Shown here one piece after another: positions 27,787 to 40,068 of a stretch of DNA of 46,921 bases. How positions within the stretch are numbered: the first letter of the stretch is position 1; each line of letters opens with the position of its first letter. A model generated the notes under the pieces. That model saw nothing but the letters and a program-made list of their open reading frames with translations. It searched no databases and was not told the origin of the DNA. A program made the translations under genes and the position numbers. This DNA is from a bacterium. Lineage in GTDB: Bacteria; SAR324; XYD2-FULL-50-16. Location of the stretch: assembly GCA_029940215.1 (NCBI GenBank), contig JAOZRE010000003.1, positions 1-46,921 of the forward strand. The letters run 5' to 3'.

Positions 27787-28596
27787 ATGACATCACTCAA
27801 TCCAACCACACTGTTCTCTTTAGAAGGAAAAACCGCGCTGGTGACCGGCGGATCACGCGGTATCGGTAAAATGATTGTCCAGGGATTTCTGGAAGCTGGT
27901 GCAAAGGTCTACATCACGGCCCGTAACGCCGACGTCTGCGATGAAACCGCCCGGGAACTCAGCCAGTTTGGACCCTGTATTTCAGTACCAGCCGACATTG
28001 GTAACGCAAAAGGGAGACAGCAGCTGCTTGATACCATTAAAGCATCCGAAAGCCAGCTGCATATTCTGATCAACAATGCCGGCAAAACATGGGGAGAGGC
28101 GTTTGAGACTTTTCCAGACAAGGCCTTCGATGATGTGATGCACCTGAACGTTAGCGCTGTGTTTTCCATGACCCGTGACTTCTGCGGGCTGCTTGAGGCT
28201 GGTTCTTCTTCCGAAGATCCCGCGAGGGTTATCAATATCGGTTCCATGGACGGGCTTCATATCCCAACCGTTGTCCGTACCGGGACCTTTGCCTATTCGG
28301 CCAGTAAAGCAGCTGTGCACCACCTGACCCGGGTCCTGGCCATTGAGTTGGCTCCAAAATTTATTACCGTCAATGCCATTGCGCCGGGTTTCTTTCCAAG
28401 TCAAATGACGGGTTATGTACTGGCAAATTACAGCCAGGATATCGAGGATAATTGTCCCTTGAAACGGGTCGGACAACCGGAGGAGATGGCTGGAATTGCG
28501 GTGTATCTATGTTCCCGGGCCGGTGCCTATACCAATGGTGCGATTATTCCGGTTGATGGCGGAACATCCATCAATCACCAGCATGCAACGGTCTAG
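27787..28596 (+). CDS. Short-chain dehydrogenase/reductase (SDR)
   Basis: TGGSRGIG, NNAG, YSASK, VNAIAPG. Confidence 0.93.
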   Translation: MTSLNPTTLFSLEGKTALVTGGSRGIGKMIVQGFLEAGAKVYITARNADVCDETARELSQFGPCISVPADIGNAKGRQQLLDTIKASESQLHILINNAGKTWGEAFETFPDKAFDDVMHLNVSAVFSMTRDFCGLLEAGSSSEDPARVINIGSMDGLHIPTVVRTGTFAYSASKAAVHHLTRVLAIELAPKFITVNAIAPGFFPSQMTGYVLANYSQDIEDNCPLKRVGQPEEMAGIAVYLCSRAGAYTNGAIIPVDGGTSINHQHATV

Positions 28597-28658
28597 ACAA
28601 ACTTTGATATTTCCATCATTCGCCATTCGATGAAGAACGCCCCAAAACAGGAGCGGCT

Positions 28659-29696
28659 ATGGATGTTTTTGAAAAAGCGGCTAGAGTGAGGTTGGATCCC
28701 GAAGATGAATATATGCATCCGCTTGAGGAAGCACGCAATTTTAATGAAAGCATGTATTTCAATCTTTTCGAAGCGGTGGAAAAACCGATGGGGGGCTGGT
28801 TTCGGATCGGGAACCGGGCAAATGAGGGTTATGCTGAAATGACCTGCTGCCTGTACCTTCCGGATGGCAGTGTCGGGTTTGTATATGGGAGACCGGAAAT
28901 CAGCGGAAACGATAAGCTGGAGGCGGGTGGTATGCGATTTCAGGTTATTGAACCGTTCAAACAGTTGAAGGTCGAGTTTGACGGCCAGGTCTGTCTGATG
29001 AAAAATCCGCACCAGATGGCTGATCCCAAAAAGGCGTTTTCAGAAAATCCCATGGTGGATTGCAAGGTCGAGATCCACTATAGGGGTGTTTCACCCATGT
29101 TTGGAGGGGAGCCGGTCAACGAAGATGGTTCTTCGATCGAGCAGAAAGCGGAGGAGGCCTTCGCCCGGGGGCATTATGAACAGCATATCAGTGGAAAGGG
29201 CCGTTTTGTCATCGATGGACAGGTCTTCCCTATTGAAGGTTTTGGTCTGAGGGATCACTCTTGGGGCCCCCGTTACTGGCAGAATATTTACTGGTATCGC
29301 TGGTTGCCCATGAATTTTGGCCGGGATTTCGCGCTGATGGCTTCCATCATTACCCAGCCGGATGGTAAGCAGCATATCGGTGGGATGGTCCTGCAGGATA
29401 ACAACTATATCGGTATTGAAGATGTTACCATCGAAACCGTCTGGGATGAAAACGATTTCCAGAAGGAACTGGTAGCTAACATCCGGACTGCTGATCGCGA
29501 ATATAAGGTTGAAGGCCGGGTGTTGTCACTGATTCCACTGCGTCACCGCCGCAAAGCACCGGACGGGAAAAGGTTGAATACCCGTATTACGGAAGGCATG
29601 ACCGAATACCGTTGTGACGGAAAAGTGGGATACGGCATGTCCGAATACCTGGACCAGATTATTGACGGCAAACCGGTTGGCAGGGAGAAGGGTTGA
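28659..29696 (+). CDS. Uncharacterised beta-rich protein with GxRDHSWG motif
   Basis: NESMYF, GHYEQ, GLRDHSWGPRYW; its stop overlaps the start of the downstream kinase (TGATG). Confidence 0.8.
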   Translation: MDVFEKAARVRLDPEDEYMHPLEEARNFNESMYFNLFEAVEKPMGGWFRIGNRANEGYAEMTCCLYLPDGSVGFVYGRPEISGNDKLEAGGMRFQVIEPFKQLKVEFDGQVCLMKNPHQMADPKKAFSENPMVDCKVEIHYRGVSPMFGGEPVNEDGSSIEQKAEEAFARGHYEQHISGKGRFVIDGQVFPIEGFGLRDHSWGPRYWQNIYWYRWLPMNFGRDFALMASIITQPDGKQHIGGMVLQDNNYIGIEDVTIETVWDENDFQKELVANIRTADREYKVEGRVLSLIPLRHRRKAPDGKRLNTRITEGMTEYRCDGKVGYGMSEYLDQIIDGKPVGREKG

Positions 29697-30682
29697 TGGG
29701 AAAGGGTGACAAGGATTTTGAACAGCGGCTTGCTGTGGCTGTCGGCAGACATCTTGAACAACCGGCTGAAATTAGAGATCTACACCGTCTGACCGGTGGT
29801 GCCGTTGCAGAGACTTGGTGGTTTGACGCGGTCGCTGGTTCTGAAACCCACGAGATGATCCTGAGGCTGGCCCGGTATGAGGAGGCTGACAACAGTTTTT
29901 ATGTTTCCAAGCGGACAGAAGCAGAAATCCAGATACTGGCTAATACGGCAAACGTTCCTGCACCGAATGTTTATTTTATCCTGGAAGCGGCTGACAATAT
30001 CGGAACCGGATACGTTATGCAGCGCATTGCTGGCGAAAGCATCCCCAGGAAGATTCTGCGTGATGAACAGTACACCGGCGCCCGAGACCTGATGGCCCGA
30101 CAGTGCGGTGGGATTCTTTGCCGGATTCATGCAATGTCACATGACTCGATCAGTGGACTGAAAATCCTTAAAACCGACCAGCAGCTGGTTGACCAGTATG
30201 CAATGTACGAATCCTTTGACGAGCCCCGCCCGGTGTTTGAATTTGCCTTTAACTGGCTGAAGGCAAATGCTCCAGAAGACCCTGCTCCCTGCCTTGTGCA
30301 TGCCGACTTCCGAAATGGAAACCTGATTGTTGGTCCGGAAGGTGTCCGCTCTGTCCTGGACTGGGAAATGGCGCATTTGGGTGATCCCATGGAAGACCTG
30401 GGATGGCTCTGCGTCAACTCGTGGCGTTTCGGAAATATCGATAAACCGGTGGGCGGATTTGGGGAACGGGAAGACCTGTTTGCCGGATATGAGGCTGCCG
30501 GCGGTCGGGTGGACCCTGAAAAGGTTCAATATTGGGAGGTATTCGGAACTCTGAAATGGGGATTAATCTGCCGATTTCAATCATTGATGCACCTGTCAGG
30601 CAGCGTTCGATCAGTGGAACTGGCTGCAATCGGACGGCGGGTCTCAGAAACCGAACTGGATCTGCTCCAGTTGCTGACCTGA
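29696..30682 (+). CDS. APH-family phosphotransferase, LvaA / ACAD10-11 kinase-domain-like
   Basis: LTGGA, HADFRNGN (Brenner motif), DWEMAHLGDPMEDLGW; ATG at 29696. Confidence 0.88.
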   Translation: MGKGDKDFEQRLAVAVGRHLEQPAEIRDLHRLTGGAVAETWWFDAVAGSETHEMILRLARYEEADNSFYVSKRTEAEIQILANTANVPAPNVYFILEAADNIGTGYVMQRIAGESIPRKILRDEQYTGARDLMARQCGGILCRIHAMSHDSISGLKILKTDQQLVDQYAMYESFDEPRPVFEFAFNWLKANAPEDPAPCLVHADFRNGNLIVGPEGVRSVLDWEMAHLGDPMEDLGWLCVNSWRFGNIDKPVGGFGEREDLFAGYEAAGGRVDPEKVQYWEVFGTLKWGLICRFQSLMHLSGSVRSVELAAIGRRVSETELDLLQLLT

Positions 30683-30697
30683 AAAAGGAGCCAACAT

Positions 30698-38690: not shown

Positions 38691-38691
38691 A

Positions 38692-38788
38692 GGGTCGGCT
38701 AAGAAATTAGGTCATATTCTGTTCGCAAAATGTCCGGCTTTAAGGACTTTTGCAAACACGTTATATGACGTTATTTATTAACGATCCC
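38692..38788. repeat. ~97-bp palindromic MITE/REP-like element, copy 3
   Basis: Same termini and core; AAA on both sides (38689-38691, 38789-38791); abuts the stop of paralog 2. Confidence 0.8.
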
Positions 38789-38877
38789 AAAAACTGGAAG
38801 ACTGAACCCCCCAGGACTTTTCTCCAGGGGGATTTCACTGAAGCAGTATTATTTTAATAAACCCAAAGGAGGAAGTT

Positions 38878-40068
38878 ATGGCATTTGAACCGTCGGAAAA
38901 AACCCAGGCCATCCTGGATATGATCAATGAATTTGTGGACAAAGAGTTAATTCCCATGGAACCCGATCTGGACAAAAAGAGTTTTTTTGAGATGGAACCA
39001 GAGCTGGAGAAAAAGCGGGACATGGTTCGCGACATGGAACTTTGGGCTCCCCTTCACCCGAAGGAGTTTGGTGGAATGGGGCTGCCGCTGATGGACACCG
39101 CTATGATTTTCGAGGCCTTGGGCAGGACACCTTACGGACTTTATGCGTTTGGATGTCAGGCACCGGATGCGGGTAATGCTGAGATTCTGCACAAGTACGG
39201 ATCCCAGGAACAGAAAGAGACGTATCTGCAACCCCTTATCGATGGAAAAATTCGTTCCTGCTTCTCTATGACCGAGACGGATGTGGCAGGCTCCAATCCG
39301 ACCTGGCTATTGACAACAGCAGAAAAGGATGGTGACGAATATGTGATCAACGGCCAAAAATGGTATACCTCTTCAGCGGATGGCGCTGCCTTTACCATCG
39401 TCATGGCCGAAACCAATCCCGAGGCTGAGTCTAGACATATGCGTGCCAGTATGATTATCGTCCCTCTTGATGCTCCGGGTTTTAATCTGGTTCGTAACAT
39501 ATCGATCATGGGTCATGTGGGTGAAGGGTACCCCAGCCACGCCGAAGTCGCCTATCAGAACTGCCGGGTTCCGCAAAAGAATATCCTGGGCGGTGAAGGA
39601 ATGGGGTTTGTGCTGGCTCAGGACCGACTAGGACCAGGCCGGATCCATCACTGTATGCGCTGGGTTGGAATCATGAACCGCTGCTTCGATCTGATGTGCT
39701 CTTACGCCAAGAAACGTCGCCGCACACCGGACAAGGTGCTGGCAGATTCTGATATTATCAAGACTTACATTGCGGACAGTGCAGCCGACATCCTCTCCTC
39801 ACGCCTGATGGTGCTGAATACCGCTTGGGTCATCGAAAACAAGGGCGTCAAAGATGCGATGAAGGATATCTCGTTGATCAAGTTTTACGTGGCCAATGCC
39901 ATGCAACGGGTAATTGACAGGGCTCTGCAGGTTCATGGAGGACTGGGCATGTCCGACGATACACCGATTTCCATGTACTACAGAGGAGAACGCGCAGCCC
40001 GGATCTACGATGGTGCTGATGAAGTTCACAAAATCAGCGTTGGCAGACGTATCCTGAAGGAGTATTAA
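38878..40068 (+). CDS. Acyl-CoA dehydrogenase family protein, ACAD10/11(LvaC)-like, paralog 3
   Basis: Same motifs; RBS AAGGAGG. Confidence 0.92.
   Translation: MAFEPSEKTQAILDMINEFVDKELIPMEPDLDKKSFFEMEPELEKKRDMVRDMELWAPLHPKEFGGMGLPLMDTAMIFEALGRTPYGLYAFGCQAPDAGNAEILHKYGSQEQKETYLQPLIDGKIRSCFSMTETDVAGSNPTWLLTTAEKDGDEYVINGQKWYTSSADGAAFTIVMAETNPEAESRHMRASMIIVPLDAPGFNLVRNISIMGHVGEGYPSHAEVAYQNCRVPQKNILGGEGMGFVLAQDRLGPGRIHHCMRWVGIMNRCFDLMCSYAKKRRRTPDKVLADSDIIKTYIADSAADILSSRLMVLNTAWVIENKGVKDAMKDISLIKFYVANAMQRVIDRALQVHGGLGMSDDTPISMYYRGERAARIYDGADEVHKISVGRRILKEY

Follow-up and report, generated by a model that had tools for sequence, protein, structure and literature searches.

Organization and conservation of the interval

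The stretch analysed here (the window) comprises positions 1-46,921 of contig JAOZRE010000003.1 from an uncultured SAR324 bacterium (assembly GCA_029940215.1). We focus on its interval 27787-40068, which encodes a putative kinase with a small partner, a protein of the DUF7065/DUF7064 families and three acyl-CoA dehydrogenases (ACADs; CoA, coenzyme A). A first-pass annotation, made from the sequence alone, had read this interval as one pathway for 4-hydroxyacyl-CoAs, analogous to the levulinate (Lva) pathway of Pseudomonas putida. All the components it listed, namely a short-chain dehydrogenase/reductase (SDR), an unknown protein, an APH-type kinase, a small partner, a FadB-like enzyme, a second SDR and three dehydrogenases, were found at their assigned places. 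However, they belong to no fewer than three transcription units, and these occupy both strands. The interval is thus composed of three units, A, B and C, and not of a single pathway operon.

Unit A lies on the plus strand and begins with SDR1 (27787-28596; PF13561/PF00106). It is followed by the 345-residue DUF7065/DUF7064 protein (28659-29696; PF23212, 6e-31, and PF23213, 3e-10), the APH-family kinase (29696-30682, with the ATG at 29696 and an alternative start at 29693; PF01636, 4e-31), the small helical DUF6285 protein of 125 residues (30698-31075; PF19802, 4.8e-31) and a FadB/FadJ-like bifunctional enoyl-CoA hydratase/3-hydroxyacyl-CoA dehydrogenase (31329-33410; PF00378, PF02737 and PF00725). 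The score of the latter with the FadJ model NF008363, 484 bits, lies under the model cut-off, and no NCBIfam model reached its cut-off with SDR1. Unit B, on the minus strand, contains hgcA (34743-35864), hgcB (34450-34758) and, downstream of hgcB, SDR2 (33546-34352; PF13561, 4e-56). Unit C, again on the plus strand, consists of ACAD1 (36207-37397), ACAD2 (37497-38690) and ACAD3 (38878-40068); the listed reading frame of ACAD2 starts with a TTG at 37440, and the MAFDPSEK start corresponds to 37497. Since a scan for promoters and terminators gave counts no higher than those of shuffled controls, no operon boundaries were taken from it.

Comparison with relatives indicates that these units have been inherited separately. 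In a metagenomic relative (L085, 88-94% nucleotide identity), collinearity with the window is limited to 18776-33507. Beyond fadB, it carries genes for DUF4405, CooC and CODH/ACS in place of SDR2, hgcBA and the ACADs, and the conserved operon therefore ends at fadB. Together with unit A, a divergent operon on the minus strand is conserved, each of its first three genes being syntenic in relatives. It starts with a 4HBT-fold thioesterase (27071-27502; PF03061, 1.2e-13), continues with a crotonase-family enoyl-CoA hydratase/isomerase (26038-26910; PF00378, 8.9e-39) and an ene-reductase of the old-yellow-enzyme (OYE) family (24848-25978; PF00724, 1.3e-68), and ends with a FadH-like reductase that combines an OYE domain with Pyr_redox_2 (22730-24652; PF00724, 3e-84, and PF07992, 1e-29). 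In the sister genome, G315, the kinase cassette is situated at a contig end; an ACAD pair is carried by a different contig, and its flanks there are not those seen in the window. Within the order, close homologues of the ACADs occur in 8 of 24 genomes, and the kinase together with the DUF7064 protein in 2 of 24.

The hgcAB pair, inserted between SDR2 and the ACAD trio, had been overlooked in the first-pass annotation. HgcA scores 397 bits with NF040863 (cut-off 275) and carries the cap-helix motif NVWCAAGK (in GINVWCAAGKG), while HgcB contains two [4Fe-4S] Fer4 domains and a C-terminal Cys pair, terminating in GCC. A mercury-methylation pair is defined by a corrinoid protein with a cap helix, N(V/I)WCA(A/G)GK, and a transmembrane domain and, after it, a ferredoxin that has two [4Fe-4S] clusters and a C-terminal Cys pair; by these sequence features, the host is predicted to be a mercury-methylating anaerobe. 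The distribution of hgcA is patchy: it is missing from the two other genomes of the genus and present in 7 of 19 genomes of the family. In other genomes it never shares a contig with the ACAD cluster, and it is also unlinked to the ACADs in the genus that we designate g5. The hgcAB pair is therefore unrelated to the hydroxyacyl-CoA pathway and interrupts the interval.

A kinase coupled to a putative phosphate lyase

The kinase of unit A displays the hallmarks of the APH fold. Its VHADFRNGN and LDWE motifs align with HGDYRLDN and LDWE of 3dxp (the HxDxxxxN loop and the DWE metal site), and residues H202, D204, N209, D222 and E224 are invariant in the alignment of the family, which counts more than 8000 matches. 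When the family profile was searched against the PDB, it matched 3dxp (2.7e-22), 9o56 (1e-19), the kinase domain of ACAD11 (1.5e-19), Rv3168 (7e-15) and 9fsg (1.7e-12), the last being presumably 25-HSK. The single sequence is only remotely similar to the ACAD11 kinase domain (33.8 bits). This kinase is the sole copy of the DUF6285-type in the genome.

The DUF6285 gene begins 15 nt 3' of the kinase gene. To place this arrangement in context, 80 loci with kinases related to the window APH, from many phyla, were surveyed; their lineages are not independent. In 79 of these 80 loci, the gene immediately after the kinase encodes a DUF6285 homologue, and natural APH-DUF6285 fusions of 460-495 residues were found. 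Because of this adjacency and these fusions, the DUF6285 protein is very probably an obligate kinase subunit, with a role similar to that of LvaB, the subunit of the LvaA kinase (PMC6692424). A PDB search with the single DUF6285 sequence found nothing, and no paper mentioning DUF6285, DUF7064 or DUF7065 was found in the literature searched by name.

The DUF7065/DUF7064 protein is the partner of the kinase on the other side. Its stop codon overlaps the kinase ATG by 1 nt (TGATG), indicating translational coupling. In a PDB search with the single sequence nothing was found, and only the family profile reached a known structure: the sole family matched was 25-phosphosteroid lyase (25-PSL; 9fzn, 9g2i and 9g4c) with an hmmsearch E-value of 4.6e-7. 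This match extends over three collinear segments, including the RDxSWG motif, which reads RDHSWG in the window protein (R198-D199-H200-S201-W202-G203) and is invariant in the family alignment in all positions except H200; in the aligned chain of 9g4c, the Asp of this motif is apparently replaced by Asn. An AlphaFold2 model of the protein (pLDDT 90.9) likewise pointed to 9fzn as the top Foldseek match (E 9e-16, TM-scores 0.65/0.63), and further matches of the predicted fold were AttH, fungal Diels-Alderases and kievitone hydratase. By profile and modelled fold, the DUF7065/DUF7064 protein is thus a distant homologue of 25-PSL and, therefore, itself a candidate for a flavin-independent lyase that eliminates phosphate. 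It corresponds to the "unknown protein" of the first-pass annotation. The conserved core could, consequently, represent a complete kinase and lyase pair for which no ACAD is required.

The neighbourhoods of the related kinases are in agreement with such a pairing. Presence of the putative lyase was scored by tblastn, since the regular expression RD[HR]SWG caught just 13 of the 23 loci that bear it. In these 23 of the 80 loci, a DUF7064 homologue is located within 10 kb of the kinase, in most of them directly upstream; at least five phyla are represented, and the hosts belong to Thermodesulfobacteriota, Actinomycetota, Myxococcota, Alpha- and Gammaproteobacteria. Among the neighbours of the kinases over all 80 loci, enoyl-CoA hydratases (34), acyl-CoA synthetases (32), SDRs (26) and ACADs (26) are prominent. 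A Syntrophaceae locus (L006) shows the gene order PTE-lactonase, AMP ligase, DUF7064, APH and DUF6285, which fits the lactone or hydroxy-acid substrate proposed in the first-pass annotation. A FadH-like gene is directly 5' of the DUF7064 gene in L007 and adjoins the cassette in L002/L003 and L085/L086. SDR1 is found upstream of the kinase-lyase cassette in this genus only; it could act as an oxoacyl-(CoA) reductase, in a role similar to that of LvaD.

A DUF7064 gene was also seen outside such cassettes. On two Desulfobacterales-like contigs (L087/L088, 900-11040), a DUF7064 protein 66-71% identical to that of the window is encoded in the neighbourhood of a TetR regulator, an HCMR-type ACAD (see below), a His_Phos_1 phosphatase, electron transfer flavoprotein (ETF) genes and an HGD-D/BcrAD dehydratase-activator set; no kinase was found within 10 kb of this DUF7064 gene.

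It could be argued that the kinase and the lyase, in the manner of 25-HSK and 25-PSL, act on an alcohol that is not bound to CoA. The substrate might, for instance, be an isoprenoid or steroid-like lipid with a tertiary or allylic hydroxyl, and the neighbouring β-oxidation genes would be used later or independently. Indeed, 25-PSL is the sole characterized relative of the lyase, the APH-like kinase 25-HSK phosphorylates free steroids (PMC8449060), and in L004 the kinase pair adjoins a gene for an epoxide hydrolase as well as MaoC/DUF35/thiolase genes of a kind characteristic of side-chain degradation. However, the kinase profile is nearer to the ACAD11 acyl-CoA kinase domain (1.5e-19) and to 3dxp (2.7e-22) than to 9fsg (1.7e-12), CoA ligases, crotonases and ACADs dominate the neighbours, and sister kinases are coupled to ACADs of the HCMR type, which are enzymes of acyl-CoAs. 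We consequently regard a non-CoA substrate as improbable.

The three acyl-CoA dehydrogenases

The two motifs highlighted in the first-pass annotation, RLGPGRIHHCMR and IYDGADEVH, are present as exact matches in ACAD1, ACAD2 and ACAD3, which share 82-87% pairwise identity. ACAD2 and ACAD3 are recent tandem duplicates, whereas ACAD1 has an orthologue of 89% identity in the sister genome (G315_L137b). In a PDB search, the best relatives of ACAD3 were ACAD11 structures (2wbi, 281 bits, and 8v3u, 277 bits) versus about 160 bits for SCAD. The IYDGADEVH motif aligns with ADGPDEVH of 2wbi, an Asp thus replacing the catalytic Glu, as does D753 in the DGPDEVH of ACAD11. The RLGPGRIHHCMR stretch is identical to ACAD11 in the alignment, so that the HCMR motif and the upstream arginine are kept.

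In mouse ACAD11, R626, R631, H634, R637 and the catalytic D753 are required for phospho-elimination; in its structure, R626, H634 and R637, associated with the HCMR helix, are phosphate ligands and D753 is the catalytic base, and the combination of HCMR ligands and catalytic Asp is common only to ACAD10/11 and LvaC (PMC12440821). The window ACADs match these phosphate ligands and the base letter for letter (R-LGPG-R-IH-H-CM-R and the D of DGADEVH). Furthermore, in a maximum-likelihood tree, ACAD1-3 share a clade of 18 HCMR-type enzymes (support 100/99) with 4hr3 and human ACAD11, and none of the genome's 15 other ACADs belongs to it. A grouping with ordinary ACADs, which would have counted against the first-pass annotation, is thus not observed. 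Inside the clade they form a sister subclade to the ACAD11 group, ACAD3 being 37.5% identical to human ACAD11; outside their own lineage, their closest relatives are the kinase-adjoining ACADs of L062 and L128. Signature and phylogeny both uphold the earlier assignment to the LvaC/ACAD10-11 type, and we predict that ACAD1-3 are flavoenzymes eliminating phosphate from 4-phosphoacyl-CoAs.

Alternatively, ACAD1-3 might be ordinary ETF-linked dehydrogenases of a divergent subfamily, in which the HCMR/Asp signature is kept without phosphate elimination. Their position in a sister subclade to ACAD11/4hr3, with only 37.5% identity to ACAD11, would allow this, as would the fact that, in L087, L088 and genus g5, their closest homologues have genes for ETF alpha/beta as neighbours. 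Yet the five ACAD11 residues to which phosphate binding or the role of base has been assigned, by experiment or by modelling, are all kept, the subclade members L062 and L128 adjoin kinases, and in genus g5 an APH kinase is directly 3' of the ACADs, in clusters that hold other, ordinary ACADs able to use ETF. An ordinary dehydrogenase role thus appears very unlikely.

In genus g5, the kinase that follows the ACADs is a 354-residue APH of its own, of a different subfamily, with TetR, ETF, SDR and FadH-like genes nearby. The gene of about 240 codons between the g5 ACADs was considered as a histidine phosphatase, as in L087, and this was rejected, its sequence showing a TetR-type helix-turn-helix. 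SDRs 36-37% identical to SDR2 are present in these HCMR-ACAD clusters, an identity level that is not specific, and SDR2 is no more than a possible member of the pathway. An ACAD 83% identical to ACAD3 was also encountered on a 1.5-kb contig (G007:C319, L132) of a 6.9-Mb genome from the order of a Marinobacter MAG (metagenome-assembled genome); this contig is probably a bin contamination.

ACADs of the HCMR type also accompany related kinases. In six gammaproteobacterial loci (L062, L143-L147), HCMR-ACAD, APH and DUF6285 genes follow each other with overlapping codons. In L147 (G190:C10:104000-122000), this triad is followed by an SDR and an AMP ligase, giving a full Lva gene set in an lvaCABDE-like order. 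In 301 sampled genomes of the order of a Marinobacter MAG, such C-A-B(-D-E) operons were found and no operon ordered A-B-C-D-E. A third type of ACAD (424 residues, with FVH(E/Q)NRIRQAAS and ITEGSEEIQ, the latter with the canonical Glu) is encoded 0.4-2.5 kb 3' of APH-DUF6285 in Bradyrhizobium, Burkholderiales, Alcanivorax and Marinobacter (L027, L032, L040, L069, L081 and others), and in the tree it branches as the sister group of the HCMR ACADs (98/95 support). DUF7064 and a kinase-linked ACAD never co-occur: such an ACAD is present in none of the 23 loci with DUF7064 versus 33 of the 57 without it (Fisher p 4e-7, a value to be read with the non-independence of the lineages in mind). In a quick kinase tree, partner types are clustered but have switched several times, and the window kinase is found among lyase-coupled kinases. 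On our interpretation, the lyase and the ACADs would be alternative second-step enzymes for one kind of phosphorylated hydroxyacyl-CoA.

The genome also encodes a second kinase that could serve the ACADs. An APH on contig C265 (12098-13153) gives a full-length match with the kinase domain of ACAD11 (8v3v, E 2.4e-76, 260 bits) and matches 3dxp with 4e-118. It is therefore a much better ACAD11-type kinase than the window APH, which the first-pass annotation had taken as the kinase of the ACADs. The surrounding genes (G000 C265:7100-16063) code for an ADP-forming CoA-ligase-like protein, an aldehyde:ferredoxin oxidoreductase (AOR), an Fe-type alcohol dehydrogenase, this kinase, a MATE transporter and crotonases; the region may represent a gene cluster for the activation of hydroxy acids and has no HCMR-ACAD linked to it.

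Two proposed modules and their relation to known systems

Taken together, these data favour an interval that probably contains two independent modules, each working by phosphorylation and subsequent elimination, and parted by the unrelated hgcAB insertion. Module A would comprise unit A (27787-33410) and the divergent genes (22730-27502). In this module, SDR1 would reduce an oxoacyl-CoA to a secondary alcohol. The two-subunit kinase made of APH and DUF6285 would then phosphorylate the resulting hydroxyacyl-CoA, as its family and context suggest. Next, the 25-PSL-like protein, judged by its homology and gene coupling, may expel the phosphate in a flavin-independent step, the product being an enoyl- or dienoyl-CoA. 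Finally, the crotonase/isomerase, the FadH-like and OYE reductases and FadB could shift the double bond into the register of β-oxidation. The hydroxyl of the module A substrate would be at C4 or C5. In module C (36207-40068), the triplicated flavoenzyme of ACAD10/11/LvaC type would convert a 4-phosphoacyl-CoA into a 2-enoyl-CoA. This module has no adjoining kinase of its own, and its phosphorylated substrate could come from the C265 kinase or from the module A kinase.

A broader extension of this scheme is conceivable, although we hold it only tentatively. DUF7065/7064 proteins may be flavin-independent phosphoacyl-CoA lyases in general, forming with LvaAB-like kinases a widespread second route for dehydration of 4-/5-hydroxyacyl-CoAs derived from lactones or oxo acids, evolutionarily interchangeable with the ACAD10/11/LvaC route. 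Both eliminators would then coexist here and could share one kinase, while the FadH-like and OYE enzymes would handle dienoyl-CoA.

Conversely, the interval could represent a single Lva-like pathway in which APH and DUF6285 phosphorylate 4-hydroxyacyl-CoAs for the three ACADs, the DUF7064 protein being an accessory such as an isomerase or a hydratase, hydratases being among the proteins of its fold. This possibility draws on the tight ACAD-APH-DUF6285 triads of L062 and L143-L147, supplemented in L147 by the SDR and AMP ligase, and on the fact that the window ACADs, outside their lineage, are closest to the L062/L128 ACADs beside such kinases. It also draws on the presence of the only DUF6285-type kinase and the only three HCMR-ACADs of the genome within 5.1 kb. 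However, this adjacency is not kept in the L085 relative or in the sister genome; fadB, SDR2 and hgcAB intervene between the kinase unit and the ACADs; the kinase is translationally coupled to DUF7064 and belongs to a lyase-coupled clade; DUF7064 and kinase-linked ACADs co-occur in none of the 80 loci; and an ACAD11-type kinase is present on C265. A single pathway is thus unlikely, and the initial interpretation stands only in part. The class of the ACADs and the type of the kinase are retained, whereas one pathway across the cluster is not, the conserved operon ending at fadB, hgcAB lying between, and the ACADs being elsewhere in the sister genome. Likewise, the kinase pair is Lva-like insofar as its type is coupled to such ACADs in Gammaproteobacteria, but the conserved neighbour in the lineage of the window kinase is the DUF7064 protein.

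Several points nevertheless weigh against the two-module interpretation. The resemblance of the DUF7064 protein to 25-PSL is remote (17% identity, TM-score 0.65, rmsd 7 Å), its fold also houses hydratases and Diels-Alderases, and the only characterized lyase relative acts on a tertiary steroid phosphate and not on an acyl-CoA. The kinases of the gammaproteobacterial triads are 43-52% identical to the window kinase and translationally coupled to HCMR-ACADs, and the sole kinase of this type and the sole three such ACADs of the genome are only 5.1 kb apart; the coupling of kinase to ACADs proposed initially therefore retains some probability. The ETF genes that other Desulfobacterota-like genomes carry beside the closest HCMR-ACAD homologues would fit a net redox role. 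In addition, the source genome is a MAG of 612 contigs, 89% complete, in which "elsewhere" means another contig and not a known distance. The evidence for both modules is comparative.

Some neighbouring features of the window complete this description. Convergent to the ACADs, the minus strand encodes an AOR (40133-41830; PF02730/PF01314) and a 3-hydroxyacyl-CoA dehydrogenase (41881-42774; PF02737/PF00725), both possible accessories to the pathway. A motif scan found no AMP-ligase or thiolase motif in the window, in line with the earlier remark that an acyl-CoA ligase and a thiolase are missing from it. At 11826-15759, on the plus strand, a hybrid PAS histidine kinase/response regulator precedes a sigma-54 activator that has PAS and receiver domains. 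Located at about 79-280 is a repeat, some 200 bp long and with inverted termini (TTAACTTAAGCA...TGCTTAAGTTAA), that looks like a miniature inverted-repeat transposable element; the other contigs of this genome bear 27 further copies (77-88% identity), and one copy is found on the ACAD-pair contig of the sister genome.

4-/5-Hydroxy acids, gamma-/delta-lactones and lipid-peroxidation products have no direct entry to β-oxidation. The ATP-dependent ACAD10/11 route that solves this problem was established recently in mammals and is known from very few bacteria. The window presents its putative flavoenzyme, triplicated, in a predicted mercury-methylating anaerobe and beside a kinase-lyase cassette. 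If the lyase does act on phosphoacyl-CoAs, a function would be provided for two large families, DUF7065/7064 and DUF6285, with thousands of members, and this chemical problem would turn out to have a second solution that needs no flavin; the 25-PSL field would, in turn, gain relatives with defined genetic partners.

The classical anaerobic route is that of 4-hydroxybutyryl-CoA dehydratase (AbfD), a [4Fe-4S]/FAD radical enzyme that is sensitive to oxygen and works without ATP. It performs the same net task in anaerobes, removing the 4-hydroxyl from an acyl-CoA to give an enoyl-CoA; unlike it, the route proposed here would cost ATP, and no AbfD-family gene is present in the interval.

A closer parallel is the P. 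putida levulinate operon lvaABCDE (Rand et al. 2017, summarized in PMC6692424, PMC11342911 and PMC12440821), which combines an SDR, an APH-fold kinase with its partner and an ACAD. The interval shares with it the SDR, the APH-fold kinase with a partner of about 12-14 kDa directly downstream, and the ACAD with Asp for Glu and the HCMR motif. In Gammaproteobacteria, the complete set of ACAD, APH, DUF6285, SDR and AMP ligase is present in L147, the kinases of this group being 43-52% identical to that of the window. However, the window kinase pair is coupled to a 25-PSL-like protein and not to an ACAD, the ACADs are separate and triplicated, a CoA ligase is missing from the window and the host is anaerobic.

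The mammalian ACAD10/ACAD11 and the split kinase and ACAD of Burkholderia pseudomallei (PMC12440821, PMC11342911) are similar in that the window ACADs keep the equivalents of R626, R631, H634, R637 and D753 and cluster with ACAD11, and the ACAD11 kinase domain has a full-length homologue in this genome, on C265. They differ in that here the kinase and the ACADs are neither fused nor adjacent, the window kinase is remote (33.8 bits) and the ACADs, 37.5% identical, belong to a sister subclade. By sequence comparison, the window ACADs add new members, from an anaerobe, to the ACAD10/11/LvaC kind.

Finally, 25-HSK and 25-PSL of Sterolibacterium denitrificans (PMC8449060; 9fzn, 9g2i and 9g4c) likewise combine an APH-like kinase with a non-flavin lyase, and together they dehydrate an unreactive alcohol at the expense of ATP. 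The DUF7065/7064 protein is homologous to 25-PSL by profile and predicted fold and keeps RDxSWG. The differences are the 17% lyase identity, the acyl-CoA instead of steroid context and the extra DUF6285 subunit of the window kinase. Moreover, when the Sterolibacterium kinase was described in 2021, no candidate lyase gene was found near the 25-HSK gene (PMC8449060), whereas in the window the kinase and lyase genes overlap. Judged by these relationships, the kinase-lyase cassette is an uncharacterized variant that joins an LvaAB-like kinase to a 25-PSL-like putative lyase.

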